Below are positions 14,243 to 56,707 of a stretch of 64,000 nucleotides of DNA, piece by piece. The position numbers were made by a program, and so were the translations under genes. The notes below the pieces were generated by a model. The model was not told where the DNA came from, did not search any database, and worked only from the letters and a program-made list of their open reading frames with translations. Numbering within the stretch: position 1 is the stretch's first letter; the number at the start of each line of letters is the position of its first letter. Origin of the DNA: an uncultured Candidatus Rokubacteria bacterium. Its GTDB lineage: Bacteria; Methylomirabilota; Methylomirabilia; Rokubacteriales; CSP1-6. Location: the NCBI GenBank assembly GCA_963747235.1, contig CAVVEU010000008.1:448001-512000 (forward strand), read 5' to 3'.

Positions 14243-14245
14243 GCC

Positions 14246-15934
14246 ATGGGAAATGTTCCGCTCGACGCGGTGACGGTCGAGGTGGTCCGCGCCGCGCTCA
14301 ACGCGGCGGCCGAGCGCATGCGGATCACCATGATCAAGACCGCCTACAACCACATCATCAGCGAGAGCCTCGACTTCGGCTGCGCGATCTTCGATCCCGA
14401 CGTGCAGATGATCGCCCAGGGCATCGGGCTGCCAGTGTTCCAGGGCCACCTGGGCTTCCCCATCCAGGCCACCCTCGCCGATCGGGGCCTCGAGGCCTTC
14501 CGCGAGGGCGACGTCTTCATCCACAACGATCCCTACGCGGGCAACGGCAACCACCTGAACGACGTGGCCATGTACGCGCCGGTGTTCTGGGAGGGGGTGC
14601 TCACCGGTTTCGTCTCGGTGAAGGCCCACTGGAGCGACGTGGGCGGCCCGGTGCCGAGCTCCATGCAGGTGGGCTCGCGGGAGTTCCGGCAGGAGGGGCT
14701 TCGCTTCCAGTCGGTGCGCCTCTTCAGCCGCGGGGAGCTGAACGACGAGGTGATGCGGATGATCCGGGGCAACATCCGCACCGAGAGCGGCACGATGAAG
14801 GACATCCAGGCCATGATCGCGGTCTGCCGCGCCGGCCTGGCCTACTTCCACGAGATCCTCGGCAAGTACGGGCGCGACACCGTGCTCGACTCCACCCGGG
14901 TCTACCTCGAGCAGTCCGAGCGTCGCACGCGCGCCGAGCTGGCCCGCATCCCGTCGGGGACGTATCGGGCGGTGGCCCACTTCGACAACGACGGCATCAG
15001 CCTCGACCAGCCGGTGCGCATCGAGATGGCCATCACGGTGGACGCGGGCGCGATGACGGTGGACTTCGAGGGCTCGAGCCCGCAGGTGGTGGGCCCGTTC
15101 AACTGCGGCGACGCGATCACGGTCAGCGCGTGCCGGCTCCTGATCAAGTGCCTGACCACGCCGCTCACCCCGGTGGACGAGGGCTGCTTCCGGCCGCTCA
15201 CCGTGCGCATCCCGGCGCGCTCGGTGCTGGCCTGCGAGGAGCCCGCGCCGACCGCGCGCTACTACGTGCCGATCAACCTGCTGATCGACCTGGGCCTGCG
15301 CGCGCTCTCCGAGGCGCTGCCCGAGGGCATCCCGGCCGGCTCCTACGGGGACCAGATGCCCACGATCGCGTTCGGGACCCATCCCGACACCGGGCGCCTC
15401 TTCATCCAGGGCGATCTCAACGCGGGCGGCACCGGGGCGCGGCCGGCCTATGACGGCGAGTCCGGCATGATCATCTTCGCGGGCTCGACCGCGCGGAACA
15501 ATCCGGTCGAGGTGGTGGAGTCGCGCATCCCGACCATCCGCATCCTCAAGTACGGGCTCCGGCCGGACTCGGGCGGCGCCGGGCGGTATCGGGGCGGCCT
15601 TGGCATCGAGCGGCTCTACGAGTTCCTGGCGCCGGCCTTCATCACCTTCAGCCTCGAGCGCAAGGTCACGCCGCCCTGGGGCCTGCAAGGCGGGAAGGAC
15701 GGCGCGGTGAACGGCGTCGAGATCACCGCGCCCGACGGGGCGGTGCGGCACGTGCGCAAGGCGACCCAGCATCCGATCGCGGCGGGCGAGCGCGTGCGCA
15801 TCATGACCGGCGGCGGCGGCGGCTTCGGCCCGGCCGCCGAGCGGGATGAGGCGGCGGTGCGGCGCGACGTCCGCGAGGGCTACGTGACGCCGGAGGCCGC
15901 GCGGCGCGACTACGGCGCCCGCGGCGGGGCCTAG
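14246..15934 (+). CDS. Hydantoinase B/oxoprolinase family subunit
   Basis: NDPYAGNGNHLND, HWSDVGG, QEG, DSGGAGRYRGG, GGGGGFG. Confidence 0.95.
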   Translation: MGNVPLDAVTVEVVRAALNAAAERMRITMIKTAYNHIISESLDFGCAIFDPDVQMIAQGIGLPVFQGHLGFPIQATLADRGLEAFREGDVFIHNDPYAGNGNHLNDVAMYAPVFWEGVLTGFVSVKAHWSDVGGPVPSSMQVGSREFRQEGLRFQSVRLFSRGELNDEVMRMIRGNIRTESGTMKDIQAMIAVCRAGLAYFHEILGKYGRDTVLDSTRVYLEQSERRTRAELARIPSGTYRAVAHFDNDGISLDQPVRIEMAITVDAGAMTVDFEGSSPQVVGPFNCGDAITVSACRLLIKCLTTPLTPVDEGCFRPLTVRIPARSVLACEEPAPTARYYVPINLLIDLGLRALSEALPEGIPAGSYGDQMPTIAFGTHPDTGRLFIQGDLNAGGTGARPAYDGESGMIIFAGSTARNNPVEVVESRIPTIRILKYGLRPDSGGAGRYRGGLGIERLYEFLAPAFITFSLERKVTPPWGLQGGKDGAVNGVEITAPDGAVRHVRKATQHPIAAGERVRIMTGGGGGFGPAAERDEAAVRRDVREGYVTPEAARRDYGARGGA

Positions 15935-15946
15935 CCGGGCGGCCTC

Positions 15947-17165
15947 ATGGCTTCGCTCCGCGCGATCCGCTGCGGCACGCTGTTCGACGGGACCGGCGCG
16001 GCGCCCGTGCGCTCCGCGGTGGTGGTGGTGGACGGCGCGCGGATCACGGCCATCGGCCCCGCCGCCACCACGCCGGTGCCCGCGGGCGCCGAGGTCCTCG
16101 ACTGGAGCGATCGCTTCGTGATGCCGGGCCTGGTGGATGCCCACAGCCACATCTCGATCGTGCCGGGCGACGGCGACCAGATCGGCCAGCTCCGGCAGGA
16201 GGCGGTGCCGCAGGCGTTGCGCGCGACCGCGAACCTGCGGCGCGACCTGGCCTCCGGCACCACCACGCTGCGGGTGATGACCGAGGAGCACTTCCTCGAC
16301 GTGGCGGTGCGGGAGGCGATCGAGGCGGGCGTGATCCCGGGACCGCGCCTGCTCTGCGGCACGCGCGGCATCACCTCCAGCAACGGCCACGGCCGCGCGC
16401 ACTCCGCCTTCGACGGGGTGGACGAGATCCGCCGCGGGGTGCGCGAGAACTTCCAGCGCGGCGCCGATCACGTCAAGATCTTCGCCACCGGGGGAGTCAG
16501 CTCGCCGGGCACCACGCTGAACGCGAGCGTCTACTCGCGCGAGGAGATCCGGGCCGCGGTCGAGGAGGCGGAGCGGGCCGGGAAGTACGCGGCGGCCCAC
16601 GCCCACGGGGGCCCCGGGCTCCGTCTCTGCGTGGAGGAGGGCGTCTCCACCATCGAGCACGCCGGGCTCGCCACCGACGACGACGTCGCGCTGATGAAGG
16701 AGCATCGCGCCTGGCTCATCTGCACCTTCTCGATCTTCATGCACGCGCGCGGCATCGAGCAGGGCGACGGGCGCAACCCCGCGATCATGGCGAAGCTGGC
16801 CGCGGCGCGCCGGACGATCGCGGAGACCTTCCCGCGCCACCTGGCCTCGGGGGTGCGCTACGCCTCCGGCACCGATGGGGTGCACGGCGCGATGCCCTTC
16901 GAGCTGGAGACGCTGGTGCGCTTCGGGGTCTCCACGGCGGACGCGCTGCTGTCGGGCACGCGCTGGGCGGCCGAGGCCTGCCGCATGGACTCGGAGGTGG
17001 GCAGCCTGGCGCCGGGCAAGCGCGCGGATCTGATCGCGATCGAGGGCGACCCGCTGGCGGACATCGAGGCGCTCCGCCGGGTGCGCCTCGTCATGAAGGA
17101 CGGTGAGGTTCAGGACGTCATGTCGAACAATTATGGGAGGAACGGCAAGGGGGAGGAACGGGTGA
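15947..17165 (+). CDS. Amidohydrolase family protein, prolidase/imidazolonepropionase-like (3' end uncertain)
   Basis: MPGLVDAHSH, GADHVKIFATGG, AAHAHG, TIEH, SGTD, GSLAPGKRADLIA, VMKDG; no in-frame stop before the next gene. Confidence 0.85.
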
Positions 17166-18749
17166 TGGCGGATCGGGAGCGGACGGCGGACTGGGATCGG
17201 AGCACGCGGCGGGAGTGGCTGGGTCGGATGGGCGGGCTCGCCGCGGGGGCGGGGCTGGCCTCGATGGGCGGCGCGGGCCTCGCGGCGCGCCCGGCGTGGG
17301 CGCAGGGGCAGCCCAAGCGCGGCGGGCATCCTGAAGGTCGCCACCGTGGACAAGCCGGTGAACATGGACCCGGGCTTCGCCCAGCTCTACTCCTCGCTCC
17401 AGGTCTACCAGAACGTCTACAACAAGCTCGTCTACGTGGACGATGCCGGCCAGTTCGTGCCCGGCCTCGCGAAGTCGTGGAAGCAGGACGGCGAGAAGAC
17501 CTGGGTCTTCGACCTGGTGGACAACGCCACCTTCCACAACGGCGAGCCGTTCACCGCCAAGGACGTGGCCTTCACCTTCAACCGGCTGCTCGACGCCAAG
17601 AACAAGCTGCCGATGCGCGTGTTCTTCTCGCCGGTCGAAGGCGTGGAGGCGGTCGGGGCGCATCAGGTGCGCTTCAGCCTGAGCCGGCCGTTCGGCCCGC
17701 TCTTCGCGATGCTGTCGCAGGCCACCGAGATCGTCAACGAGAAGGCGCTCGCCGAGAAGGATCCGAAGCTGTTCCCGATCGGCACCGGGCCCTATCGCTT
17801 CGTGGAGTGGGTGAAGGACGACCACATCACGCTCGAGCGCTGGGACAAGTACTTCCGGCCCAACCGCCCGTACCTCGACCGCATCATCTTCCATTCGCCG
17901 GCCGACGACACGGTGCGGCTCACCGGGCTCCAGACCGGGCGCTTCAACTGGATCCAGACCGTGCCGCCGCAGCGCATCGCGGAGCTCGAGCGGCTGCCGC
18001 GCGAGATGAAGTCCTCGCCCGGCAAGCCCTACTTCCCGTTCTACCTGATGCTGAACGCGAGCCGCCCGCCGCTCAACGACAAGCGCCTGCGGCAGGCCCT
18101 GGCGTGGACGATCGACCGGTCCGAGATCGTCAAGCTCGTCTACTTCGACACCCACGTGGTCACCGCGGAGCCCACTCCGGCGCCGAGCCCGTGGGCCACC
18201 GGGGTGAACGCCCACAAGGGCGGCCCCGACCTGGCGAAGGCCAGGCAGCTCCTCGCCGAGGCGGGCCACGGCAACGGGCTCACCCTGACCTATCTCGTGA
18301 AGTCGCAGGTGCCGGTGCTGGTCAAGACCGGCGAGATCCTGCGCGAGCAGCTCAAGAAGGTGGGCATCACGCTCGACGTGCGGCCGCTCGAGTCCGGGCA
18401 GTACTTCGAGGAGCTGGTCGGCAAGAAGTTCGACATCGCGGGCGGGTGGTGGAGCGTCACGGTGGACCCGGACATGTTCTACTACCCGATGCAGCACTCG
18501 TCCTCGGCGTGGAACTTCTGCGGGTTCAAGTCGGAGGAGGCGGACAAGCGGCTCGACGCCTTCCGCTTCACCGCGAACGTGGCCGCGCGCAAGAAGATGT
18601 ACCCGGAGCTGGTGCGCTACTTCCAGGAGGAAGGCTCGCTGATCGTCTTCAGCAACGAGCTGCAGCGCTACTGGATGAAGCCCAACGTGCAGGGCTCGGC
18701 GCCGCTGTCCTCGCTCGAGCTGCGCTTCGAGGACACCTGGCTGAGTTGA
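17165..18749 (+). CDS. Peptide/nickel ABC substrate-binding protein with Tat signal (frameshift near 17325)
   Basis: STRREWL; AWAQGQPKRGG; FHNGEPFTAKDV; PIGTGPYRF. Confidence 0.9.
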
Positions 18750-18754
18750 TTGAA

Positions 18755-18785
18755 CTGGGGGGAGCGAGCGCCGCTCCTCCCCCAG
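18755..18785. repeat. Intergenic GC hairpin (REP-like) downstream of the binding-protein gene
   Basis: CTGGGGGGAGCG pairs with CGCTCCTCCCCCAG with a small bulge; no U-tract. Confidence 0.5.
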
Positions 18786-18814
18786 GCCCCCCCACCGCTC
18801 TCGAACAGCGCGAG

Positions 18815-19760
18815 ATGATTCTCGTACGCGGTGCGGCGGCTGGCCTTGGCGGTGCCGCTGCTGCTCGGCATGAGCGTGCTGATCTTCGCGCTCATGCGCC
18901 TGGTGCCGGGCGACCCGGCGGTGGCGGTGCTGGGCTACAAGGCCACGCCCGACGGCATCCGGGCGCTGCGCGAGGCCTTCCACCTCGACGAGCCGGTGCC
19001 GCAGCAGTACCTGCGCTGGCTCGGCGCGGCCGCGCGCGGAGACCTCGGCCACGACTTCCGCCAGAACGAGCCCATCGGCCGGATGATCCTCGACCGGTTG
19101 CCGGTGACGCTCGAGCTGACCCTGCTCGCCGCGCTCTGCACGGTGCTGATCGGGGTGCCGCTCGGCCTTCTGGCCGGCGGCCGGCGCGGCGGGGCCGCGG
19201 ATCGGGCCGCGCTCGCGGTGGGCCTGCTCGGGGTCTCGGTGCCCGACTTCTGGCTCGGGATCATGCTGATCCTGGGCCTCTCGCTGGGCGCCGGGCTGCT
19301 GCCCTCGGGCGGGTGGGTGCCGTTCGCGGAAAGTCCGCTCGAGAACCTGATCCACATGGCGCTCCCGGCCCTGACGCTGGCGGTGAGCCGCGCGGCGGTG
19401 CTCGGCCGGCTGACCCGCGCCGCGGTGCTCGACACCATGCACAAGAGCTTCGTGCAGTACGCGCGCGCCAAGGGCCTCGGCGAGCGCGCCATCCTCTTCC
19501 GGCACGTGCTGCCCAACGCGGCGATCCCGATCGTCACGGTGCTCGGGCTGCAGGTCGGCTACATGCTGGGCGGCGCCATCGTGGTCGAGATGATCTTCAC
19601 GCTGCCCGGCCTCGGGCGCATGACGCTGGACGCGGTGCTCGAGCGCAACTACCCGGTGGTGCAGAGCGCGGTGCTGGTGATCGGCGCGATGTTCATGCTG
19701 GTGAACCTGGTCACCGACGTGCTCTACGGCGCCATCGACCCGCGCGTGCGGCGGCGCTGA
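18815..19760 (+). CDS. Peptide ABC permease, DppB-like (ATG 18815 needs one indel; in-frame GTG 18831)
   Basis: MRLVPGDPA, GDLG, PDFWLG, YARAKGL, RHVLPNA, IFTLPGLG, IDPRVR. Confidence 0.92.
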
Positions 19761-20596
19761 TGCGACCGTCGGGGATGAAGCTGGAGGGAGTGACCGTGGC
19801 CGGGCTCGCGGTGGTGGCCGCGCTCGCGCTGATCGCGGTCCTCGCGCCGCATGTCGTGCCGGGCAGCCCCACCGAGATCGCCAAGGACCACGCGCTGCGC
19901 GGCCCCACCTGGGGCCAGCCCTTCGGCATGGACGACCTCGGGCGGTCCATCCTGAGCCGGGTCGCGCACGCCTACCGCGTCTCGCTCGGCGTCGCGCTGG
20001 CCTCGGTGGCGCTGGCCCTGCTGGTCGGCCTCCCGCTCGGCCTGGTGGCGGGCTACGCGGAGGGCGCGCTCGATCAGCTCATCATGCGGCCGCTCGATGT
20101 GCTGATGGCGTTCCCCGCGATTCTCCTCGCGATCGCCCTCATGAGCGTGTTCGGCACCGGCGTGGTGCTGGTGGCCGCCTCGCTCGCGGTGGTCTACACC
20201 CCGATCGTGGCGCGCGTGGTCCGGGCCGCGGTGCTCGCGGTCAAGGCGGAGGTCTACGTGGACGGCGCGAGGGCGCTGGGCGCGCCGGCGCCCCGGCTGG
20301 TGCTGCGCCACATCCTGCCCAACGCGGCGACGCCGGTGCTGGTGCAGGCCTCGGTGCTGATGGCGATCGCGATCCTGGTCGAGGCCTCGCTGTCGTTCCT
20401 CGGGGTCGGCGTGCGGCCGCCGACGCCCTCGCTCGGGCTCATGCTGGCCGACGGCCGCGGCTTCATGGTGCAGGCGCCCTGGATGGTGATCTTCCCCGGG
20501 CTGGCCATCATGGCCGCGGTGCTCGGCTTCAACATGGTGGCCGACGGACTGCGCGACTGGCTCGACCCGCGTTCTGGCGGTAGCATGGGGGCATGA
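19760..20596 (+). CDS. Peptide ABC permease, DppC-like
   Basis: PFGMDDLGRSILSR, AFPAILLA, RHILPNA, EASLSFLG, DGLRDWLDPR. Confidence 0.92.
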   Translation: MRPSGMKLEGVTVAGLAVVAALALIAVLAPHVVPGSPTEIAKDHALRGPTWGQPFGMDDLGRSILSRVAHAYRVSLGVALASVALALLVGLPLGLVAGYAEGALDQLIMRPLDVLMAFPAILLAIALMSVFGTGVVLVAASLAVVYTPIVARVVRAAVLAVKAEVYVDGARALGAPAPRLVLRHILPNAATPVLVQASVLMAIAILVEASLSFLGVGVRPPTPSLGLMLADGRGFMVQAPWMVIFPGLAIMAAVLGFNMVADGLRDWLDPRSGGSMGA

Positions 20597-21840
20597 AGAC
20601 TCAGCGGTTCGTCATCGTGGGGGCCGCCCTGGCGGGCGCGAGCGCGGCGGCGGCGCTCCGTGAAGGGGGCTTCGACGGCCGGATCACCCTGATCGGCGCC
20701 GAGCCGCTGATGCCGTACAATCGCCCGCCGCTCTCGAAGGGCTATCTCCGCGGCCAGGACCGCTTCGAGGATCAGCTCGTCAATCCGCCCGCGTACTATG
20801 CCGAGCACGACATCACGCTGCGGTCGGGGGTGCGCGCGGACGCCATCGATCCGGGGCGCAAGATCGTCACCCTGGAGCGCGGCGACGAGGTCCCGTACGA
20901 CCGGCTCCTGGTGACCACCGGCGGGCGCAACCGGACGCTGACGACGCCCGGGGCCAACCTGCCCGGCATCTTCCAGCTCCGGACCGTGGAGGACTGCGAT
21001 CGGCTCCGCGCCGTGGCCAAGCCCGGGCGCCGCGCGGTCGTGATCGGCCTGGGGTTCATCGGCTCCGAGGTGACCGCGTCGCTCCGCCAGATGGGCGTCG
21101 AGGTCACGGCGGTCGAGGGCAATCCGGCGCCGCTGGCGCGGGTGCTCGGCCCGGAGGTCGGCGCGGTGCTGGCCGGCATCCATCGCGAGAAGGGCGTGGA
21201 GCTGGTCCTGGAAGACTCGGTCGCGGCCTTCGAGGGCACGGGCTGGGTGGAGCGCGTGCGCACGACGAAGGGGCGGGTGCTGCCGTGCGACTTCGTGGTG
21301 GCCGGCATCGGCATCGTGCCCAACGCGGAGCTGCTCGCCGCCGCGGGGGCGACGGTGGACAACGGCGTGCTCGTGGACGAGCGCTGTCGCACCTCGCTGC
21401 CGGACGTCTACGCGGCGGGCGACGTGGCGAACCATCTCCATCCCGTCTTCGGGCGGCTGCGCGTCGAGCACTGGAACAATGCCTACCGGCAGGGGCGGGC
21501 CGCGGCCCGCGCGATGCTGGACGGGCCCGAGCCCTACGACTACATGCACTCGTTCTGGTCGGATCAGTACGAGCACGTGATCGAGTACATCGGCTTCGCG
21601 GCGTCCTGGGACCGGCTCGTGTTCCGGGGCGATCCGGCCGGCCGGAAGTTCCTCGGCTTCTACGTGAAGGACGGGGTCGTGCGCGCGGCGGTGGGGCTCG
21701 ATCGCGGCGGCGATCCGGAGGATCCCAAGGGCGACAGCGAGCTGGCGGTGGTCGCGGGCCTCATCCGGGATCGCGTCCCGGCCGATCCGGGGCGGCTGGC
21801 CGACGAGGGCGTGGACCTCAAGCGCCTCGCCCGCCCATAG
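20593..21840 (+). CDS. FAD-dependent NAD(P)H:ferredoxin reductase-like oxidoreductase
   Basis: PYNRPPLSKGYL, GLGFIGSE, TSLPDVYAAGDVA, RVEHW, FWSDQY. Confidence 0.92.
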   Translation: MKTQRFVIVGAALAGASAAAALREGGFDGRITLIGAEPLMPYNRPPLSKGYLRGQDRFEDQLVNPPAYYAEHDITLRSGVRADAIDPGRKIVTLERGDEVPYDRLLVTTGGRNRTLTTPGANLPGIFQLRTVEDCDRLRAVAKPGRRAVVIGLGFIGSEVTASLRQMGVEVTAVEGNPAPLARVLGPEVGAVLAGIHREKGVELVLEDSVAAFEGTGWVERVRTTKGRVLPCDFVVAGIGIVPNAELLAAAGATVDNGVLVDERCRTSLPDVYAAGDVANHLHPVFGRLRVEHWNNAYRQGRAAARAMLDGPEPYDYMHSFWSDQYEHVIEYIGFAASWDRLVFRGDPAGRKFLGFYVKDGVVRAAVGLDRGGDPEDPKGDSELAVVAGLIRDRVPADPGRLADEGVDLKRLARP

Positions 21841-21858
21841 TGGTAAACTCCTGACATC

Positions 21859-22810
21859 ATGAGCTTCGACTACGGCAAGTACTTCGGCGAGATCAAGCTG
21901 ACGCACGACCTCCTCTCGAAGAAGGAGGAGCGCACCTGGCTGCTCAAGCCGCCGCGCGACGGCGAGCGCCACGATGTCGTCCTCTACCTGGGCTGCAACG
22001 TGCTGCGGACCTCGCACCTGGTCGAGACGGTGGGCGCGGTCTTCGACCGGCTCGGGCTCGACTACGTGGCCGCGGGCGGGCCGACCTACTGCTGCGGCAT
22101 CCAGCACCACCGCCGCGGGCAGGAGGCGTCGGGCGAGCGCTACGCCAATCACACCGTGGAGCTGCTGCAGAGCATGGCGCCGCGCGAGGTCGTGATGTGG
22201 TGCCCGTCGTGCATCCAGTTCTACGACGAGGTGCTGCAGGCCGAGCTGCCGTTCCCGAAGCGCCACACCGCCGAGTTCCTGGCCGACTGTCTCGACCGCG
22301 GGCTCTTCACGTTCACCCAGCGGGTCGAGGCCACCGTGGCGCTGCACTATCACTACGCGACGGAGGCCCGGGCGCGCGAAGGGCGGGCCGCGCGGCGGCT
22401 GCTGGAGGCGGTGCCCGGTATCACGGTGATCGACTTCGAGCCCGACGCGCGCTGGGGGCGCACGTGCACGCCGGCGCTCCAGGAGCAGCTCGGGCCCGCG
22501 GTCTGGCGGCAGATGGCGCTCGACGACATCGACCGGGCGGTCGGGGCGGGGGCCACGCACCTGGCCGGCATCTACCACGGCTGCCATCGCGATCAGTGCC
22601 GGTTCGAGCGCGAGCGGCCCGATCGTGGTCGAGCACTACCTGACGCTCTTCGCGCGCGCCCTCGGCATCGAGTTCGAGGACACCTACAAGAAGTACATGC
22701 ACATGGGCGACCCCGACCGGATCCTGGAGGACGCGAGCCCCTGCATGGCCGCCAACGGGGTCGATCCCGAGAAGGCGCGCGGGCTCGTCATCAAGACCTT
22801 CTCGGCGTGA
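21859..22810 (+). CDS. CCG-domain (HdrB/GlpC-like) Fe-S binding protein (frameshift near 22620)
   Basis: LYLGCN, YCCG, WCPSC, YHGCHR; continues VEHYLTLFARALGIEFEDTYKKY. Confidence 0.75.
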
Positions 22811-23735
22811 CGCCGGTCGCCCGAGCAGGTCCAGTTCGCCCCGGAGGACGACGTGCCGATCCGGTACATGGATCGGACGCGTGAGTACTACCAGGCGCTC
22901 GGCTTCGCCCCGTACCGCTGGGCCCACTTCACCGACGCGCCGTTCACGCCGCTCGCCATGCCGCTCGCGCGGGCCCGGGTCGCGCTGATCACGACCGCGG
23001 CGCCCGTTCCAGCCGGAGGCCGGCGACCAGGGGCCGCGCGCGCCGTACAACGCGGCCGCGAAGTTCTACCAGGTGTACTCGGCGCCGGTGGACAGCAAGC
23101 CCGATCTCCGCATCTCGCACGTGGGCTACGATCGGGCGAACACGGTGCCCGAGGACCTCAACGCCTACGTTCCGCTGGCCAGGCTGCAGGACGCGGTCGC
23201 GGCGGGACGGATCGGCAGCCTGACCCCGCGCTTCCATGGCGCGCCGACGAATCGCAGCCACCGGGTGACCATGGAGACCGACGCCCCCGAGCTGCTGCGC
23301 CGCTGCCGGGAGGACGGCGCCGACGCGGTCGTCCTCGTCCCGAGCTGACCGGTCTGCCACCAGACCGTGGGTCTGGCCGCCCGGCACCTGGAGGCGAACG
23401 GCATCCCGACCGTGATCATGGGCTGCGCCAAGGACATCGTGGAGCACTGTGGCGTGCCGCGCTTCGTGTGGAGCGACTTCCCGCTCGGCAACTCGGCCGG
23501 GCGGCCCTTCGACGTGGAGTCCCAGGCGCAGACGCTCGAGCTGGCCTTCCGGCTGCTCGAGACCGCGCCGGTGGCCCGGACCACGGTGGCGTCGCCGCTC
23601 CGCTGGGCCGCGGACGCGGCGTGGAAGCATCGCTTCCTCGACGTCGGGAAGCTCTCGCCGGAGGCCATCGCGGAGCGGCGGAAGGAGTTCGACGTGGTGA
23701 AGGCGGTGGCGAAGGCCAAGCGCGAGGGCGCGTGA
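22807..23735 (+). CDS. PrdB/GrdB-family reductase selenoprotein B; in-frame TGA 23346-23348 read as Sec (indels near 22815 and 23003)
   Basis: PFTPL...RVALITTAA, ISHVGYD, DLNAYVPLARL, DGADAVVLVPS-U-PVCHQT, LEANGIPTV, DFPLGNSAGRP; the ORFs either side of the TGA are in the same frame and both match D-proline reductase PrdB. Confidence 0.85.
23360..23376 (+). promoter_or_regulatory. Candidate bacterial SECIS hairpin of the PrdB-like gene
   Basis: CCAGACC-GTG-GGTCTGG perfect stem starting 11 nt after the UGA, with G in the apical loop. Confidence 0.7.
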
Positions 23736-24925
23736 GCAAGCCGTTCGCGGGCGTCCGCATCCTGGACTTCACCCGCTATCTCGCCGGCCCGTACGGGACC
23801 TACCAGCTCGCCCTCCTGGGCGCCGACGTCATCAAGATCGAGTCGCACGAGGGCGACGAGACGCGCCTCTCGCCCGCCGATCCCAAGTGGGCGGAGCGGA
23901 AGATGGCCCCGTCGTTCCTCTCCATGAACGGCAACAAGCGGTCGATCACGCTCGATCTCCGGCGCAAGGAGGCGATCGAGGTCGTCCGGCGCCTGGTCGT
24001 CGGGGCGGACGTGGTGTGGGAGAACTTCCGGGGCGGGGTGATGGACCGGCTCGGGCTCGGCTACGAGGCCCTGTCCGCGATCAATCCCAAGCTCATCTAC
24101 TGCGGCGTCTCCGGCTTCGGCCGGACCGGGCCGGAGAAGGCCACCGCGGCCTTCGACGGCAAGCTGCAGGCGATGTCCGGGATCATGTCCATCACCGGCG
24201 AGCCCGCCTCGGGCCCCACGCGCGCCGGGTTCGCGCTCTGCGACACCATCGGCGGCATCACCGCGGCGCTCGCGGTGGCGAGCGCGCTCTACCAGCGGAC
24301 GCATACCGGGCGCGGCCAGCTCGTGGACGTGGCGATGCTGGACGCGGCGCTGGCCTTCATCGCGGGGCCGGTGTCGGAGTACACGGTGGCGGGCGTCGAG
24401 CAGAAGCAGATCGGCAACGGCTCGGTGAGCCGCAAGCCCACCGCGAGCCGCTTCCGCTGCGGCAACGGATTCATCGTGCTGGCGGTGCTGACCGAGAAGC
24501 AGTTCGTCGGCCTGATGAAGGCGCTCGGTCGGCCCGACGCGCTGGCCGACCCGCGCTTCAAGGACTGGCCGGCGCGCACCGCCAACGAGCCGGCGCTGCG
24601 CGAGATCATCGAGAAGGCGCTGGCCACCGACGATCCGCGCACGTGGGAGGCACGGCTGACCGCGGCCGACGTGCCCTGCGGCTCGATCTGGAAGGTGGAC
24701 GAGATCGTGGGCCACCCGCAGCTCGAGCACCGCGACGTGCTCCAGACCATCGACTCGCGCTACGGCCCGATGCGGCTCGTGGGCGCGGGCTTCCGTCTCG
24801 AGCACGGCAGCCCGGGGATCGACCGGGAGCCGCCGACGCTCGGCGAGCACACCGACGAGATCCTGGCCGAGGCCGGCTACACCGCGGAGGAGATCGAGCG
24901 GCTCCGGCGCGACGCGGTGGTGTGA
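23732..24925 (+). CDS. CoA transferase family III (CaiB/BaiF)
   Basis: GVRILDFTRYLAGPY, LGADVIKIE, NKRSITLDL, ENFR, LGLGYE, PPTLGEHT. Confidence 0.95.
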   Translation: MSKPFAGVRILDFTRYLAGPYGTYQLALLGADVIKIESHEGDETRLSPADPKWAERKMAPSFLSMNGNKRSITLDLRRKEAIEVVRRLVVGADVVWENFRGGVMDRLGLGYEALSAINPKLIYCGVSGFGRTGPEKATAAFDGKLQAMSGIMSITGEPASGPTRAGFALCDTIGGITAALAVASALYQRTHTGRGQLVDVAMLDAALAFIAGPVSEYTVAGVEQKQIGNGSVSRKPTASRFRCGNGFIVLAVLTEKQFVGLMKALGRPDALADPRFKDWPARTANEPALREIIEKALATDDPRTWEARLTAADVPCGSIWKVDEIVGHPQLEHRDVLQTIDSRYGPMRLVGAGFRLEHGSPGIDREPPTLGEHTDEILAEAGYTAEEIERLRRDAVV

Positions 24926-24938
24926 GGGGGCGCGTCGC

Positions 24939-25985
24939 GTGAGGCTCCCGGTGACGGACGGCGTCGTGAAGACGGACCGGCACACCACGTTCTATCTCGA
25001 TGCCGGCGCCCCCGACGCGCCCCTCATCGTGTTCGTGCACGGCTGGCCCGAGCTCTCGCTCTCCTGGCGGCATCAGCTCCCGTGCTTCGCCGACCTCGGC
25101 TTCCGCGCGATCGCGCCGGACATGCGCGGCTACGGCCGCTCCGGCGTGTATCGACGCCACGAGGACTACGCGCTCGAGCACGCGGTGCGCGACATGCTCG
25201 AGCTGCTCGACGCGCTCGGGCGGGAGAAGGCGGTCTGGGTCGGCCACGACTGGGGCAGCCCGGTGGTCTGGAGCCTGGCGAGCCACCACCCGGAGCGCTG
25301 CTGGGGCGTGGCCAACCTCTGCGTGCCGTATCTCGCGGCCGGGTTCTCCCCGCGCAACCTGATCCCGCTCGTGAATCGCGCGGTCTATCCGGAGGCGCAG
25401 TACCCGGCGGGGCAATGGGACTACATGCTCTTTTACGAGGAGAGCTTCGCGAAGGCCTGTGCCGGCTTCGACGCCGATCCGCGCAACATGGTCAAGGCCT
25501 TGTTCCGGAAGGGGAGCCCGGGCGGCAAGGGCAAGCCGTCCCGCACCGCGCAGACCCGAAAGGACGGCGGCTGGTTCGGCGGCACCGGCCGGGCGCCCGA
25601 CGTGCCGATGGACGCCGACGTGGTGACCGCGGAGGAGCTCGACACGTACGCGGCCGGCCTCGCGCGCAACGGCTTCTTCGGCCCGGACTCCTGGTACATG
25701 AACGCGGAGCGCAACCTGGCTTACGCGACGCGGGCAAAGGACGGCGGCAGGATCAGCCTGCCCGTCCTGTTCCTGCACGGCGAGTACGACTACACGTGCG
25801 AGACCGTCGATTCCCGGCTGGCCGAGCCCATGCGGCGCGACTGCCGGAACCTCACCGAGGTGGTGGTGCCGTCGGGGCACTGGATGGCGCAGGAGAAGCC
25901 GCACGCCGTGAACGCGGCGCTGGCGGGATGGCTGGCCACCGCACTGCCGCAGGTGTGGCCGATCCGGCCCCGCCCGCGAGCCTGA
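24939..25985 (+). CDS. Alpha/beta hydrolase, soluble epoxide hydrolase type
   Basis: VHGWPE, APDMRGYGRS, GHDWGS nucleophile, GHWMAQEKP. Confidence 0.92.
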   Translation: MRLPVTDGVVKTDRHTTFYLDAGAPDAPLIVFVHGWPELSLSWRHQLPCFADLGFRAIAPDMRGYGRSGVYRRHEDYALEHAVRDMLELLDALGREKAVWVGHDWGSPVVWSLASHHPERCWGVANLCVPYLAAGFSPRNLIPLVNRAVYPEAQYPAGQWDYMLFYEESFAKACAGFDADPRNMVKALFRKGSPGGKGKPSRTAQTRKDGGWFGGTGRAPDVPMDADVVTAEELDTYAAGLARNGFFGPDSWYMNAERNLAYATRAKDGGRISLPVLFLHGEYDYTCETVDSRLAEPMRRDCRNLTEVVVPSGHWMAQEKPHAVNAALAGWLATALPQVWPIRPRPRA

Positions 25986-25992
25986 GCCCTCC

Positions 25993-26967
25993 ATGTTACG
26001 CACGCGCATCTGCGAGCTGCTCGGTATCGAGCACCCGATCGTCCTGGGCGGGATGGGAAGCGCCACGTCGCCCGAGCTGGTGGCCGCGGTCTGTTCCGCC
26101 GGTGCCTTCGGGGTGCTGGGCGCGACGCGGCAGAGCCCCGAGGAGGTGGCACGCGACGCCGCGGCGATTCGCGCGGCGACCGGCAAGGGCTTCGGGCTCA
26201 ACCTTCTCCTGTTCCTGGAGCGCCCCGGCCAGTACGACGGCCTCCTGGCCGCGCGGCCCCGGGTCATCTCCACCGCGTGGCCGACGCTCCAGCAGGATTT
26301 GAGCGGCTACGTCGCGCGGGCCCACGCGATCGGCGCCCTGTTCATGCACATGGTCTCGACGGTGGCCGACGCGAAGGCCGCGGCCCGCGCGGGCGTGGAC
26401 GTCATCGTGGCGCAGGGGACCGAGGGCGGCGGCCACGTCGGGGTCATGGGCACGATGCCGCTCGTGCCCATGGTGGTGAGCGCGGTGGCGCCGACGCCGG
26501 TGCTGGCCGCGGGCGGGGTCGCGGACGGGCGCGGCCTGGCCGCCGCGCTGGCCCTGGGCGCCGACGGCGTGCTGCTGGGCACGCGCTTCCTCGCGTCCGA
26601 CGAGGCGCCGATCGCCAAGGGCTTCAAGCAGGCGATCGTGGAGAGCGACGGGCACGACACGCTGGTGACCGAGATCCCGGACGTGGCCAACGGGCAGGTC
26701 TGGCCCGGGGCCTACGTGCGGGTGCGGCGGAATCGGTTCATCGAGGAGTGGGTCGGGCGGGAGAACGAGCTGCGCCTGCGGCGCGTCGAGGTGAGCGCCC
26801 AGCTCCGCGAGGCCGCCAAGGCGGGCGATCCGGACCGGGGCGCGATCATGATCGGCCAGACCGCCGGCCTCATCGACCGGGTCGAGCCGGCCGCCGACCT
26901 GGTCCGGCAGATCAGCCGCGACGCCGAGGCCATCCTGCGCGAGCGCCTGCCGCGCCTGCTCGCCTGA
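25993..26967 (+). CDS. Nitronate monooxygenase / FabK-like flavoprotein
   Basis: LGIEHPIVLGGM, AQGTEGGGH, AAGGVADGRG, LGTRF. Confidence 0.92.
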   Translation: MLRTRICELLGIEHPIVLGGMGSATSPELVAAVCSAGAFGVLGATRQSPEEVARDAAAIRAATGKGFGLNLLLFLERPGQYDGLLAARPRVISTAWPTLQQDLSGYVARAHAIGALFMHMVSTVADAKAAARAGVDVIVAQGTEGGGHVGVMGTMPLVPMVVSAVAPTPVLAAGGVADGRGLAAALALGADGVLLGTRFLASDEAPIAKGFKQAIVESDGHDTLVTEIPDVANGQVWPGAYVRVRRNRFIEEWVGRENELRLRRVEVSAQLREAAKAGDPDRGAIMIGQTAGLIDRVEPAADLVRQISRDAEAILRERLPRLLA

Positions 26968-26974
26968 GGGAGCC

Positions 26975-28632
26975 ATGACCGAGAAGAGACCGGCGACGGC
27001 GTCACGCGGCATGGTGGTCACCAATCACCCGCTCGGCTCGGCGGCGGGGGCCGAGATGCTCGCCGCGGGCGGCAACGCGGTGGACGCGGCCATCGGCGCG
27101 CTCTTCGCGCTCACGGTGGTGGAGCCGATGATGGTGGGCATCTTCGGCGCGGGCATGACGCACCTGCGGCTGGCCGACGGCCGGCACCTCGTCATCGACA
27201 ACTACACCACCGCGCCCGCCGCCTCGCGGCCCGACATGTTCAAGCCGGTCTCCGACACCTGGCCCGACTACCTGCGCGCGGAGGGCGACGTCAACCTGGT
27301 CGGCCTGCTCTCGGTGGGCGTGCCCGGCACGCTCAAGGCGTGGGCGGAGGCGGTGGCGCGCTTCGGCCGTCTCGACCTCGAGACCGTGATGCAGCCCGCG
27401 ATCCGTCACGCCGAGCGCGGCTTCCGCGCCACGCCGTACCTGGTGGCGGCGGTGACCGAGACCGCGCCGGAGATCGCGCGCTTCCCCGACACCGCGCGCA
27501 CCTTCCTGCCCGGCGGCGCGCCCATCAAGGCGGGCGATCTGATCCAGATGCCGGAGTACGCGGCGACCCTGCGCCTGATCGCGGCGAAGGGGCCCGGCGT
27601 GCTCTACGGCGGCGATCTCGGCGCGACGGTGGCCGACTACATGCGCCGGGACGGCGGCATCATCACCCTGGACGACCTGGCGCGCTACGCCACGATCGAG
27701 CGGCAGCCCATCCGCGGTCGCTACCGCGGCTTCGAGATCACGGGCCCTCCGCCGCCGACCGCGGGCGGGCTCCACCTGGTCGAGATGCTCAACATCCTGG
27801 AGGGCTTCGACCCGCGCGGCCTGGGCTTCGGCACCGCGGACTACTTCCACCTGATGGCCGAGGTGCTCAAGATCGGCTTCGCGGACCGCAACGCGTGCAC
27901 CGGCGATCCGGCCTTCGTGGACATCCCGGTCGAGCGCCTGCTCTCGAAGGAGCACGCGGCCATGCGGCGCGCCCAGATCCGCCCGGATCGGGCGGGGGAG
28001 TACGGCGTGACGGCACGCGTGGCGGCCGGCTCCGCGCACACCACGCACGTCACGACCGCGGACGCCGACGGCAACGTGGTCGCGATGACCCAGACCATCA
28101 ACAACCTGTTCGGGTCGAAGGCCACGGTGCCCGGCACCGGCATGCTGCTCAACAACACCATGGCGCTCTTCGACCCGCACCCCGGGACGCCCGCCTCCAT
28201 CGCGCCCGGCAAGCGGGTGACCAGCAGCATGGCGCCGACGATCGTGCTGCGCGACGGCAAGCCCGCGTGGGCGCTCGGGCTGCCGGGCGGCGTGCGCATC
28301 TTCACCTCCGTGTTCCAGGCGGTGGTCAACCTGATCGACCACCGCATGAGCGCTTCAAGAAGCGGTGGAGGCGCCGCGGATCTGGAGCCAGGGCCAGGAG
28401 CTCGAGATGGAGCAGGATATCCCGGCCGCGGTGCGCGACGCGGTCGCCGCGCGCGGCCACGAGGTGGTGGCCGTCGGCGGGCGTGGCGGGCGGGATGAAC
28501 GCGGTGGCCTTCGCCGCCGACGGCACGCTCGAGGGCGCGGCCTGCTGGCGCGCCGACGGCACGCCCATCGGCGTGAGCGGCGGGCTCGCGCGGCCGGGGA
28601 GCCGCTTCCGGCCGGACGTGAAGCGGCCCTAG
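26975..28632 (+). CDS. ggt: Gamma-glutamyltransferase (frameshifts near 28355 and 28480)
   Basis: GGNAVDAAI, SVGVPG, HTTHVTTAD (Thr nucleophile), LLNN, PGKRVTSSMAP, GLPGG. Confidence 0.9.
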
Positions 28633-29388
28633 CGCTTCGCGCCCGCCGCGGCGCGGTCCATCAGGTCCTTCGCGCCGGCCTGGATCCACGGGAAGAAGCT
28701 GGTCATGATGCAGCGCACGCCCTTGCGCGTGTAGCTCTCCACGTTCGCCGAGCTGACCAGGGTGCCCGCGGTGCGCCCCGCCTGCACGATCTTGGCGATC
28801 GCCCCGTCCACCGTCTTCTGGACCTCCGGCTGCGTCATGTTGCCGATGTGGCCCATGGAGGTGGCGAGGTCGTTCGGGGCCACGAAGAAGACGTCGATGT
28901 GGTCCACGGTCAGGATCGCGTCGAGGTTGTTCACCGCCACGATGTCCTCGATCAGGACGATGAGCAGGCTCTGGTCGTTGGCGGTCTTGAGGTAGTCGCC
29001 CACGCCGAAGCCCTGGCGGCTCGTGAACATGCCGCGCTTGCCGAGCGGGGCGAACTTGGCGCCCTCCACCACCGCCTGGGCCTCCGCGCGGGTGTTGACG
29101 TGCGGCACGACGATTCCCTGCGCCCCGCGGTCGAGCGTCCGGTAGATCGTGGCGTAGTCGTTGTCCATCACGCGCACCACGCTGGTCACGTCCCAGAGGT
29201 CGCAGGCGCGGGTGAGGTTGCCCAGGTCGCGCGTAGTCCACGCCGCCGTGCTCGCCCTCGAGCCAGATGCCGTCGGCGCCCAGCGGCCCGAGCTGGTCGA
29301 TCAGGTCCGGATCGTTGGTGCCCGACAGGATGGTCGCCACCTGGCCCGCGGCCAGCCGCTGCTTCACCTTGTTCGCTCGGATGCTCAT
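28629..29388 (-). CDS. HpcH/HpaI aldolase family protein (frameshift near 29232)
   Basis: NKVKQRL, WLEGEHG, LDRGAQGIVVPHV, APLGKRG, LIED, FVAPNDL. Confidence 0.9.
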
Positions 29389-29410
29389 GGGATCGTCCTC
29401 TCGTGTCGGG

Positions 29411-30236
29411 TTAGGGGCGGGGCAGCGCGTCGCCGAGCATGCGGCCGAACACGACCATCTCGGGACTGGTCTTGCGATACGTGTCGAGCGCGGCCAGCAC
29501 CTCCGTGAACTCGGCGGCGGGCGGCATCGCGGGTGCGGCGGGCAGCGACGGCAGGGTGGCGAACACGCGCGGGATCTCGGCATCCACCGCGGCCAGGAGC
29601 CGCTGGCCGGCCGCGCGCGTGGCCGCGTCGTCCAGATGCGGCCGCAGCACCGTCGCCACGTGGGCGAGGAAGGCGGGCCACGACGGCGAGCATCCGGTAG
29701 AGCCCCGGGACGAAGACCTGGCCGGCCACGGTGGTGCCGAGCGTGGCCAGCACCGCGCGCTGGGCGGGCGGCAGCGCGGCGGGATCGGCGAGGGCGGGTA
29801 GCGGGCCGATCGGCGTCGGCGGCGTCCAGGCCGGCGCGCCGTTGCGGGCGCCGGTCGGGCGATCACCGGTCAGGATTCGCCGCAGCAGACCCGACAGCAC
29901 GAGGTTGACCGGGCTCACGCGGACGAAGCTCGCGCAGGTCGCGCGGATCGCCGCCTCGCCGGCCGCGTCCACGCCCCACACCGCGAGCGCGTCGCGCGAG
30001 AGCGGCGCGAGCCGGGGAACCGCGAGGCCGTCGGCGGCGCGCCAGGCCGCGGCCTGCGCGACGCCGCTCGTGAAGGCGGGGCCGAGCGCGGTCCACGTCC
30101 ATTCGAGCCAGCCCGGCCGCGTGGCCAGGTGGCGCTGGAGCGAGGAGACGTACGGCACGCCCCAGAGGCGCCGGATCTGCTCGTAGATGCCGGCGATCTC
30201 GCCGGTGGCATCGCTCTCCCGCAGCTCGGCCAGCAT
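29411..30236 (-). CDS. DehI/AhpD-like two-repeat helical protein (frameshift near 29685)
   Basis: ESDATGEIAGIYEQIRRLWGVPYV...RHLATRPGWLEWTW, with an internal repeat VPGLYRMLA.WPAFL. Confidence 0.5.
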
Positions 30237-30245
30237 CGCGCCGCC

Positions 30246-33162
<2,917 letters not shown>

Positions 33163-38833: not shown

Positions 38834-39797
38834 GTTGCCTCCTTGACGAGCTTCTGCAGGCTTCGCAGGCCGGGCGGAATGCGGCTGGCCCTTGTAGCGA
38901 TTGCCCCAGTTAGTGTACGACACCTCGCCCACGTAGATGTCGCCGCGCGAGTCCACCGCGAGGCCGTGCGGGGAGACGAACTGGCCGGGCTCGAGGCCCG
39001 CGAGGCGGTCGCCGAGGCGCGCCAGCCGCTCGCCCCGATGACTGTAGATGCTGACCCGCGGGCCGATATTCGGGCACGTCGTAGTTGACGGGGAGCGCGC
39101 CGCCGATCTCGCCCACGTAGAAGCGGCCCTGGCCGCCGCGCTCCATGAAGAGGCCCGAGGGGCGGTGCATGTCGTGCCACTGCGTCTCGAACCGGCCGTT
39201 GCCGTCGAAGACCTGGACGCGGTGGTTCTCGCGGTCGGCCACGTAGACCCAGCCGTCGGCGTCACAGCAGATGTTGTGCGGGATATTGAACTGGCCGGGA
39301 TCGGTGCCGGGCTCGCCCCACGACGAGAGCAGGGTGCCGTCCGGCGCGTACTTGTGGATGCGCGCGTTGCCGTAGCCGTCGGAGACGTAGAGATCGCCCC
39401 GCGGCGAGAGCGCGGTGTGCGTGCAGCGATGGAACGGCTCGCCGCTCATGTAGGGCCGGGGCTTGCCGGGGATCCCGATGGTCAGGAGCACCTTGCCGTC
39501 GAGCGTGCAGTGGCGAACCGTGTGATCGCCGTCGTCGGTCAGCCACAGGGTGTCGTCGGGCGCCACGTGGACGCCGTGCGCGCGGTGGAAGACGCCTTCG
39601 CCCCAGGAGCGGAGGAAGTTGCCCTCGCGGTCGAGCACGACCATCGGGTGGGCGCCGCGGTTGAAGGCGTAGACCTGGTCCCGCGCGTCCACGCCGACCG
39701 CGGCCACGTCGGCGTTGAACTCCTGGCCCGGCGGCAGCTTGGCCCAGCGGTCGTCCACCCGGTAGCGATAGGCGCCGGTGCCCAGGATGGCCGGCAT
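38830..39797 (-). CDS. NHL-repeat beta-propeller protein, peptidyl-alpha-hydroxyglycine amidating lyase-like (frameshifts)
   Basis: VYAFNRGAHP, SWGEG..RAHG, YVSDGYGNARIHK, GQFNIPHNI, YVADRENHRVQVFD, PHGLAVDSRGDIYVGEV. Confidence 0.85.
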
Positions 39798-40751: not shown

Positions 40752-40762
40752 GCTGAGTTCTC

Positions 40763-55312: not shown

Positions 55313-56707
<1,395 letters not shown>

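Follow-up and report, generated by a model that had tools for sequence, protein, structure and literature searches.

A PrdB-like selenoprotein gene paired with a family III CoA-transferase in a Candidatus Rokubacteria genome

The PrdB-like gene and its selenocysteine codon

The present study concerns a PrdB-like selenoprotein gene and its neighbours in a stretch of 64,000 nucleotides (hereafter the window) from an uncultured Candidatus Rokubacteria soil bacterium (GenBank assembly GCA_963747235.1, contig CAVVEU010000008.1, positions 448,001 to 512,000 of the forward strand). The window has a G+C content of 70-74% and is part of contig C8; the genome measures 5.57 Mb in 42 contigs and is 88% complete, and the nearest named records with the same locus carry the labels Candidatus Methylomirabilota or Rokuibacteriota (G, C and L numbers are our handles for genomes, contigs and loci). 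At 20593-24925, four plus-strand genes encode a flavin adenine dinucleotide (FAD) reductase, a CCG-domain protein, the PrdB-like protein and a family III coenzyme A (CoA) transferase (Table 1). The profile matches bear out the original prediction, made from the sequence alone, that four adjacent genes lie here; they do not form a stand-alone module, as they sit in the middle of a longer co-directional array (12221-28498), in which the gaps from the FAD reductase onward are 0-18 nt.

The PrdB-like gene contains an in-frame TGA within the motif S-U-P-V-C (23343-23357), where U stands for selenocysteine (Sec). This position is aligned with an invariant cysteine in the database homologues, including proteins that are 81-87% identical to the Sec form. 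The TGA is kept among relatives: it stands at the motif (S/T)-U-P-V-C-H-Q-T in 19/19 relatives' loci and at the same motif in 14 more Rokubacteria sites, i.e. 13 orthologous loci and one paralogue. A six-frame search of 41 genomes (our own and 40 relatives) returned matches in 30 of them, and 50 of the 52 listed matches have the in-frame TGA, the other two covering query residues 2-82 or 211-244 and not spanning the Sec site. Bacterial Sec insertion sequence (SECIS) elements are expected about 11 nt after the UGA and carry a G/U-containing loop. In the window, a 17-nt hairpin (CCAGAC-N5-GUCUGG) begins 11 nt past the UGA, and no Rfam family matches anywhere in the window at gathering thresholds. 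The perfect 6-bp stem of this hairpin is present in 33/34 Sec-type genes, which are all kin and form one related group, vs 2/67 Cys-type genes; the mean energy of the 17-mer is -8.7 kcal/mol in the former and -2.0 kcal/mol in the latter; and, within the 3' arm, a Gly/Ser codon reads GGT or AGT in each of the 34 Sec types and mostly AGC or GCG in Cys types. A genome search for selABCD found tRNA-Sec, SelA, SelB and SelD all present: the genome holds one tRNA-Sec gene (aragorn; Rfam RF01852, 69.3 bits), adjoined by the genes for SelA (499 bits) and SelB, and a SelD gene (227.8 bits vs a cut-off of 125) that is read in two frames (G000:C27:46033-46945). The prediction of a Sec-decoded relative of PrdB with a U-x-x-C motif is thus supported by the alignment with cysteine, the kept TGA, the hairpin and the Sec machinery, and the UGA at 23346 is positioned and equipped for reading as Sec. 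Three further observations concern Sec genes elsewhere. A multihaem cytochrome gene (Cytochrome_C554, MtrC/MtrF-like; L009:9515-10828, G000:C14) lies immediately beside the tRNA-Sec gene, on the strand opposite to selA and selB. A second SelD-like gene, split among three frames, is located on the window's own contig (G000:C8:303114-303868). A very divergent further Sec gene with the motif ...TAV-U-PVCHQTVSL and a tree branch length of 6.5 is found at L043:15351-16235, 5 kb downstream of a PrdB-like/CoA-transferase pair.

The intact orthologue at L014 (the window copy is broken in frame, as described below) matches the PrdB model TIGR04483 with 102.7 bits (E 2e-29) over profile positions 18-235 of 238; the curated cut-off of 300 bits is reached neither by this protein nor by a second paralogue from the same genome as the window (139.9 bits). 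The GrdF, GrdH and GrdB models give weak matches of 34-42 bits to L014, with TIGR01918 at 35.5 bits vs a cut-off of 65.45, and Pfam GRDB (PF07355, cut-off 22 bits) matches the pieces of the window copy with 20.3-21.6 bits and those of the orthologues at L043, L050 and L084 with 29-31 bits, above the cut-off. Relatives number at least 8000 database proteins at E below 1e-5, and among the matches listed most are Cys proteins of about 311 amino acids (aa) from Bradyrhizobium, Acetobacteraceae and similar soil Alphaproteobacteria; the homologues are named 'glycine/sarcosine/betaine reductase selenoprotein B family', 'D-proline reductase PrdB' or 'hypothetical'. Among solved structures, no relative was found by sequence (best E-value 0.58, to a designed protein). 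The AlphaFold2 model of the PrdB-like protein has a mean predicted local distance difference test score of 74.8 and a predicted template modelling score of 0.79; with it, Foldseek found nothing in the Protein Data Bank at E 0.001 or better, and a wide search with VIA-align gave generic Rossmann-like matches to LacI/periplasmic-binding and short-chain dehydrogenase/reductase (SDR) folds with a top Z of 10.6. The ESM Atlas returned only clusters from Pseudomonadota named 'glycine reductase family'. The prediction amounts to a generic alpha/beta domain of Rossmann-like fold and says nothing on function.

With one of its closest known counterparts, the D-proline reductase PrdB of Clostridium sticklandii and Clostridioides difficile, the PrdB-like protein shares homology over nearly the whole TIGR04483 profile and a Sec in U-x-x-C, the motif listed for PrdB in sections of PMC13188914 and PMC1088965; it differs in extending about 40 aa further at both the N- and the C-terminus, in being paired with a CoA-transferase and not with prdA or prdC, and in having a host that carries oxygenase genes. 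GrdB, GrdF and GrdH (PF07355, TIGR01918) and the proposed fluoroacetate reductase FarB belong to the same superfamily and, according to passages of PMC13188914 and PMC10838667, share the concept of a Sec nucleophile and of reductive cleavage alpha to a carboxyl group; in comparison with GrdB, GrdF and GrdH, the PrdB-like protein is shorter (about 310 aa against about 435 aa) and matches only the C-terminal half of the profiles. In every characterised member of the superfamily, the bond that is cleaved lies alpha to a carboxyl group, and this holds also for a proposed fluoroacetate reductase (PMC10838667).

Neither PF09338 (PrdA/GrdE) nor PF04723 (GrdA) has a match in the window or in the 88%-complete genome. 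The same searches find PF09338 in 9 and PF04723 in 8 of the 41 genomes, and therefore the method works. The genomes that have these families belong mainly to another genus (this genus, 1/20), and in them the genes adjoin GRDB hits that are 21-25% identical to the query, not the PrdB-like gene. The absence of PrdA/GrdE and GrdA genes noted for the window in the original prediction accordingly holds there and extends to the genome and to 19 of the 20 genomes of the genus, and the PrdB-like gene is, as judged from these searches, independent of the PrdA/GrdE/GrdA systems. Canonical-looking glycine-reductase sets do occur in some Rokubacteria, composed of GrdA with an in-frame TGA, a GrdE-like PF09338 protein and a distant GrdB (e.g. 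G034:C8:18061-22235, G040:C10:1702250-1705284 and G001:C260:603-4430).

Co-inheritance with a family III CoA-transferase

The CoA-transferase of the window matches Pfam CoA_transf_3 (PF02515) over its full length (profile positions 2-366 of 366), in the manner of the family III enzymes CaiB, Frc, BaiF and SUGCT; it differs from these in reaching no equivalog cut-off, and the NCBIfam models for succinate-glutarate and formyl-CoA transferases all remain below theirs (best 274 bits vs 750, succinate-glutarate). Its gene lies directly downstream of the PrdB-like gene in 19/19 loci from related genomes and, among 80 named loci, in 13/13 Sec-type loci with room for it; these two Sec-type sets may share genomes. 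Among Cys-type loci, the CoA-transferase is downstream in 22 of 66, one further locus having lacked room. On a quick maximum-likelihood tree with support from the Shimodaira-Hasegawa-like approximate likelihood ratio test only, the linkage requires 3 changes vs a shuffled mean of 26.5, and the linked Cys-type rows fall into three clades: an Acetobacteraceae-type clade (6/6), Bradyrhizobium (15/15) and L064. The other neighbours of the linked loci vary and are often related to acyl-CoA (thioesterases, enoyl-CoA hydratase, SDR proteins). The PrdB-like gene is hence co-inherited with a family III CoA-transferase, and the linkage put forward in the original prediction is kept wherever a Sec-type locus was examined and, among Cys types, in three clades of Alphaproteobacteria. 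One linked locus, L080, comes from a record titled Frankia sp. RB7; since it nests among the Bradyrhizobium rows on a branch of length 0.02, its position suggests a contaminant contig or a mislabelled record and not an actinobacterial gene.

The association with a CoA-transferase recurs at a second, distant paralogue. A further GRDB match in the same genome (G000:C29:143247-144441; L150:7248-8441) encodes a Sec protein of 398 aa with the motif T-U-P-F-C, which is 37% identical over 212 residues to the first. Its cluster consists of a CoA-transferase (34% identical to the first), a medium-chain dehydrogenase/reductase (MDR) protein, whose best named relatives, none of which reaches its cut-off, are PIG3 quinone oxidoreductases and acrylyl-CoA reductases, and then the paralogue. 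An orthologue of this paralogue, at 79% identity or more, occurs in twelve loci, our own genome included: the cluster is complete in 8, in one the CoA-transferase is present and the MDR gene missing, and the other three sit on short contigs that break off before it. In another three loci there are only distant relatives of the paralogue (30-38% identical), and no CoA-transferase. At the first locus, the NMO/FabK-like flavin mononucleotide (FMN) oxidoreductase gene of the array (25993-26967) is a candidate for an enoyl-thioester reductase as judged from its profile matches, and a gene of this type directly follows the CoA-transferase in L048 and L029, which belong to other genera; an alpha/beta hydrolase gene comes after the CoA-transferase in the loci of this genus. 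Two distant paralogues each therefore stand beside a CoA-transferase and a candidate enoyl-thioester reductase, the reductases being of unrelated folds. As the link to the CoA-transferase is kept far beyond this genome and recurs at the second paralogue, the gene contexts favour a CoA-activated substrate for the PrdB-like enzyme.

The CCG protein, the FAD reductase and the frame breaks

CCG domains, as found in HdrB, are known for thiol and disulfide chemistry, and the HdrB-type motif is defined as C-x(31-39)-CC-x(35-36)-C-x2-C. The CCG protein of the window scores up to 32.5 bits on Pfam CCG (PF02754; cut-off 20.6), and has the motif C-x31-CCG-x35-C-x2-C, in which C46, C78-C79-G80 and C115-x2-C118 are invariant in 18 sequences. 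Like HdrB and other CCG-domain proteins, it therefore has one complete motif and passes the cut-off; unlike HdrB, its second half has no second CCG motif and instead four other cysteines (C203, C242, C247 and C295), which are also invariant in the 18 sequences, its gene is adjoined by no HdrC or HdrA gene, and it is paired, in this genus only, with a flavoprotein of the ferredoxin-reductase type. In that flavoprotein, the FAD reductase, both domains (PF07992 and PF14759) score above cut-off, and its best NCBIfam matches are HcaD/AndAa-type ferredoxin-NAD+ reductases, all below curated cut-offs. All 16 loci of the genus have the CCG gene directly upstream of the PrdB-like gene, with overlapping stop and start; preceding the CCG gene, the FAD reductase could be detected in 13 of them. 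Among 13 named loci with Rokubacteria labels, only two (L040 and L044), whose PrdB-like proteins are 89% identical to the query orthologue, have the CCG and FAD reductase genes, and these genes are beside none of the alphaproteobacterial PrdB-like loci examined. The linkage of the CCG gene claimed in the original prediction consequently stands for the genus and for L129, a locus of another genus, and fails for other Rokubacteria and for all alphaproteobacterial loci. The CCG protein belongs to a small family: of 8000 database candidates scored, 662 proteins reach E 1e-10 or better. The family is present in 79 of the 151 genomes of a sample of the phylum, a tally that includes the unpublished G095 and G132. 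A complex prediction for CCG and PrdB-like database proteins gave scores of 0.00 and 0.00 vs a mark of 0.32 and weighs neither way. The electron supply put forward in the original prediction, which would lead from NAD(P)H via the FAD reductase and the CCG protein to the selenenylsulfide, is plausible but hypothetical.

The CCG and PrdB-like genes of the window are not readable as uninterrupted open reading frames (ORFs). Read literally, the window contains a CCG ORF of 341 aa whose C-terminus is false and an ORF of 690 aa (22853-24925; genetic code Table 11) that runs from PrdB out of frame into the CoA-transferase, and both result from three frame-breaking changes in the window copy, which were found by alignment with five relatives plus L040 and L044 and which 19/19 relatives lack. 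In the CCG gene, an extra C in the run 22618-22620 shifts the frame; in the PrdB-like gene, there is a net change of +1 within a variable stretch (22811-22830) and an extra C in the run 23003-23005. Both clear insertions turn CC into CCC. The conserved N-terminus of the PrdB-like protein (…DDVPIRYMDRTREYYQALGF…ITTAAP) is read in another frame, from 22853, and the rest (FQPEAGDQGP… to …KAKREGA) in a third frame, whereas these parts are contiguous in a single frame in 19/19 related loci. In relatives, the CCG gene ends with ...KTFSA* and its TGA overlaps the ATG or GTG start of the PrdB-like gene (G/ATGA). The true start of the PrdB-like gene in the window is GTG 22807-22809, forming a GTGA overlap with the CCG stop TGA (22808-22810), and its stop is TGA 23733-23735, forming another with the CoA-transferase start GTG at 23732. 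Of the two GTGA overlaps in the original prediction, the one between PrdB-like gene and CoA-transferase (23732-23735) is retained; the one between CCG and PrdB-like genes exists at 22807-22810 and not at 22881-22884, i.e. 74 nt upstream of the position suggested by the literal ORF. We rejected a start at GTG 22881, where the frame encodes an Arg/Ser-rich off-frame peptide before the homologous part, and we rejected the 690-aa ORF as a fusion protein, as it is an out-of-frame run from the insertion at 23003-23005 that stays uninterrupted owing to the high G+C content together with this insertion.

Such breaks are frequent in the whole assembly. A scan for changes in the phase of codon-position G+C on one strand, with the old frame open for more than 150 nt, gave 22 candidate breaks in the window and recovered the two single-base sites (at 22590 and 22980 in scan coordinates). 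It gave 1209 candidates in this genome (13.9 per 64 kb), 3 in the other Rokubacteria loci (166 kb; 1.16 per 64 kb) and 7 in the alphaproteobacterial loci (1.18 Mb; 0.38 per 64 kb), so that the genome-wide rate exceeds that in the comparison loci by a factor of 12 to 36. As probes for frame breaks, rpoB (on contig C24), which was matched without a break at profile positions 3-868, and rpoC, for which no match was found, were uninformative. No sequencing run contained as much as half of the sampled words (best 0.47). Because the whole assembly is full of such breaks, we read it as carrying many indel errors and the three breaks in the two genes as, most probably, assembly errors. ORF-based readings of this genome need care, and the many frame breaks may lower its completeness estimate of 88%. 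Further candidate breaks in the window are found e.g. at 17265, 29235-31140, 39795-41445 and 55590-56505.

Proposed chemistry, alternatives and gene surroundings

Taken together, the results lead us to propose, tentatively and with a likelihood somewhat short of an even chance, that the locus encodes a Sec enzyme from a large, uncharacterised branch of the GrdB/PrdB superfamily free of PrdA, GrdE and GrdA, that this enzyme takes part in CoA-thioester chemistry, and that the breaks are assembly errors. In the proposed mechanism, the CoA-transferase would make the CoA thioester of an acid with a leaving group on its alpha carbon, the selenolate would attack this alpha carbon, as happens in the reductases of proline, glycine and betaine, and the neighbouring cysteine would resolve the selenoether, giving an acyl-CoA enolate and a selenenylsulfide. 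Andreesen's work reportedly outlines the same selenolate and cysteine mechanism. For the proline, glycine and betaine reductases, Sec attack on the alpha carbon and resolution by cysteine are outlined in sections of PMC13188914 and PMC10838667. The thioester would stabilise the enolate and would take over the task of the pyruvoyl group or of the GrdA/GrdC relay in Stickland enzymes. Re-reduction of the selenenylsulfide would, in this genus, probably fall to the HdrB-like CCG protein together with the NAD(P)H-dependent FAD reductase, which is the least supported step; outside the genus, a general thiol system would serve instead. A wider generalisation is that GrdB/PrdB-superfamily proteins, with Sec or Cys, that are paired with family III CoA-transferases are acyl-CoA reductases of aerobic soil, and perhaps marine, bacteria which are independent of PrdA, GrdA and GrdC and which, in this genus, are driven by NAD(P)H via a dedicated FAD reductase and the HdrB-like CCG protein, the latter reducing a selenenylsulfide; such a class would reductively cleave an alpha-substituent from acyl-CoA thioesters, replacing pyruvoyl and acetyl-phosphate chemistry. 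We offer this generalisation as speculation and consider it unlikely in its full extent.

Several observations weigh against the proposal. The adjacent CoA-transferase is missing from 44 of the 66 sampled Cys-type loci, and 38 of the unlinked Cys-type rows form one Nitrobacteraceae clade with a housekeeping context (SLT, TrmO, PilZ, ClpA). The scores on the PrdB, FabK, AcuI and CoA-transferase equivalogs are all under the curated cut-offs. Over the 55 nt that follow the UGA, the fold is not more stable than that of shuffled sequences (z = -0.51), for which reason the evidence for the hairpin rests on the comparison of Sec-type with Cys-type genes. The link between the CCG and FAD reductase genes and the pair is phylogenetically narrow, and the loci that show it are kin and not independent. 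The genus member L122 has no FAD reductase within 1.5 kb upstream, and L129 has the CCG, PrdB-like and CoA-transferase genes without it. Homologues of the CCG protein that are 59-83% identical occupy 19 further loci, 17 of which have no PrdB-like, FAD reductase or CoA-transferase gene within 1.5 kb (the remaining two have a weak solute-binding protein match only), and their neighbours vary, with acyl-CoA synthetase, amine oxidase and enoyl-CoA hydratase genes among them. The findings on the CCG homologues and on the missing FAD reductase, along with the scarcity of the CCG and FAD reductase genes in other Rokubacteria and their absence from the alphaproteobacterial loci, fit a functional unit made up of the PrdB-like protein and the CoA-transferase with downstream acyl-CoA enzymes. 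The CCG protein and FAD reductase would then be neighbours of no related function that may serve the upstream peptide or gamma-glutamyl genes or another redox task, and the selenoprotein would be re-reduced by a general thiol system. The start of the FAD reductase gene, whose ATG overlaps the stop of the upstream ATP-binding cassette (ABC) permease gene, fits this too. The stop-start overlap that joins the CCG gene to the PrdB-like gene throughout the examined loci of the genus, their adjacency in one locus of a second genus and the thiol and disulfide chemistry of CCG domains speak for a connection instead, and we regard unrelated neighbours as a serious possibility, albeit on the unlikely side. 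Another alternative makes the PrdB-like protein a U-x-x-C thiol or selenol oxidoreductase that cleaves no C-X bond, whose substrate might be a disulfide, a persulfide or a CoA mixed disulfide, with the adjacency of the CoA-transferase reflecting CoA-thiol chemistry or co-regulation. The listing of PrdB among thiol-dependent redox selenoproteins with U-x-x-C in selenoproteome surveys (Table 3 of PMC1088965, a part of that source), the many Cys-type members that stand alone in housekeeping contexts and the membership of the FAD reductase in the pyridine-nucleotide-disulfide oxidoreductase superfamily are in keeping with it. We find it improbable, given that the homology spans nearly the whole PrdB profile and not just the redox motif, that cleavage alpha to a carboxyl group is common to the characterised members of the superfamily (the proposed fluoroacetate reductase of PMC10838667 among them), and that two separate paralogue loci each join a CoA-transferase with an enoyl-thioester-reductase-like gene.

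The two remaining alternatives question the gene itself or its partners. If the three insertions were real, the CCG and PrdB-like genes would be recent pseudogenes in this organism. The breaks are indeed clustered within about 390 nt (22618-23005), and the coding sequence aligned with L044 from 20592 to about 28300 contains no other unpaired single-base indel, both of which count against assembly error. Across the genome, however, the rate of candidate breaks exceeds that in the comparison loci by a factor of 12 to 36, SelD, an essential gene of the Sec machinery, is split as well, both clear insertions lengthen a CC run to CCC, and the protein parts are still 88-94% identical to the intact orthologue L014 and up to 95-98% identical to L013; decay of the genes is thus very improbable. 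The PrdB-like protein could also belong, as a subunit, to a canonical reductase of the D-proline or glycine type, with the PrdA/GrdE and GrdA partners encoded in the 12% of the genome that is not assembled; the incomplete assembly and the existence of GrdE-like and Sec-GrdA genes in some Rokubacteria could be cited for this. Such a subunit is barely credible: 19/20 genomes of the genus are without both families, yet 19/20 have a PrdB-family match, with a close orthologue (85% identity or more) in at least 17 of the 19 PrdB-bearing genomes; where Grd genes are present they adjoin a different GRDB gene (21-25% identical); and the TIGR04483 score is a third of the cut-off.

The protein family itself is not new. 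Passages of PMC1088965 and PMC2398784 list PrdB-type U-x-x-C selenoproteins as abundant in oxic ocean metagenomes since 2005, with 42 Sec PrdB genes in the Sargasso Sea and 235 Sec and 110 Cys genes in the Global Ocean Sampling data. This 'Proline reductase PrdB' resembles the PrdB-like protein as a U-x-x-C selenoprotein outside Stickland fermenters that has Sec and Cys forms; in the consulted parts of these surveys the family is listed without partner genes or a non-clostridial function. The word 'PrdA' occurs 0 times in the available text of PMC2398784, and the sole function quoted in these passages for the marine PrdB family is clostridial D-proline reduction, which needs PrdA. In our literature search, which did not extend to subscription journals, no paper was found on the pairing of PrdB-like and CoA-transferase genes or on the CCG partner, and nothing relevant was found, by title or abstract, on Rokubacteria with selenocysteine. 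The protein family has thus been catalogued as 'PrdB' since 2005, and its gene contexts appear undescribed. The pairing with a CoA-transferase, and its recurrence at a second, distant paralogue beside an enoyl-CoA-reductase-like gene, yields a testable CoA-thioester hypothesis and a clue to what this widespread and uncharacterised enzyme family does. Strains of Bradyrhizobium carry the Cys-type pair of PrdB-like and CoA-transferase genes; as these strains are cultivable and genetically tractable, experiments could start from them. Should the CCG protein turn out to be the reductant, HdrB-type chemistry would be extended to a selenenylsulfide.

Table 1. Genes and features of the co-directional array at 12221-28498 of the window, called with Pfam and NCBIfam profiles.
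Feature	Position	Strand	Evidence
Hydantoinase/oxoprolinase A and B	12221-15934	+	Pfam/NCBIfam
Amidohydrolase	from 15947	+	Pfam/NCBIfam
Family-5 solute-binding protein	17346-18749	+	Pfam/NCBIfam
Two ABC permeases	18831-20596	+	Pfam/NCBIfam
FAD/NAD(P)H oxidoreductase, ferredoxin-reductase type, 415 aa	20593-21840	+	Pyr_redox_2 224.5 bits, Reductase_C 62.7 bits
HdrB-like CCG-domain Fe-S protein (316 aa in relatives)	21859-22810	+	Pfam CCG 31-32 bits
PrdB-like selenoprotein gene (about 306 aa in relatives)	22807-23735	+	TIGR04483 on orthologue L014
Sec codon TGA in S-U-P-V-C-H-Q-T	23346-23348	+	Aligned with Cys in homologues
SECIS-like hairpin CCAGAC-CGUGG-GUCUGG	23360-23376	+	Sec-type vs Cys-type comparison
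Family III (CaiB/BaiF-type) CoA-transferase, 397 aa	23732-24925	+	Pfam CoA_transf_3 379.1 bits
Alpha/beta hydrolase	24939-25985	+	Pfam Abhydrolase_1 107.8 bits
NMO/FabK-like FMN oxidoreductase	25993-26967	+	Pfam NMO 188 bits; NCBIfam FabK 218 bits (cut-off 453)
Gamma-glutamyltransferase, last gene of the array	26975-28498	+	Pfam 425 bits; TIGR00066 389 bits (cut-off 357.85)

The window also contains oxygenase genes, i.e. a Rieske ring-hydroxylase, two luciferase-like monooxygenases and a cytochrome P450 (6600-9284, 47079-47915, 50912-51781 and 53036-54238), as had been stated for the host in the original prediction; these genes would fit an oxygen-using lifestyle. The flanks of the selenoprotein gene within the array (12221-20596 and 26975-28498) consist of oxoprolinase, amidohydrolase, peptide-type ABC uptake and gamma-glutamyltransferase genes, all co-directional, which presumably points to the uptake and breakdown of gamma-glutamyl compounds or peptides.

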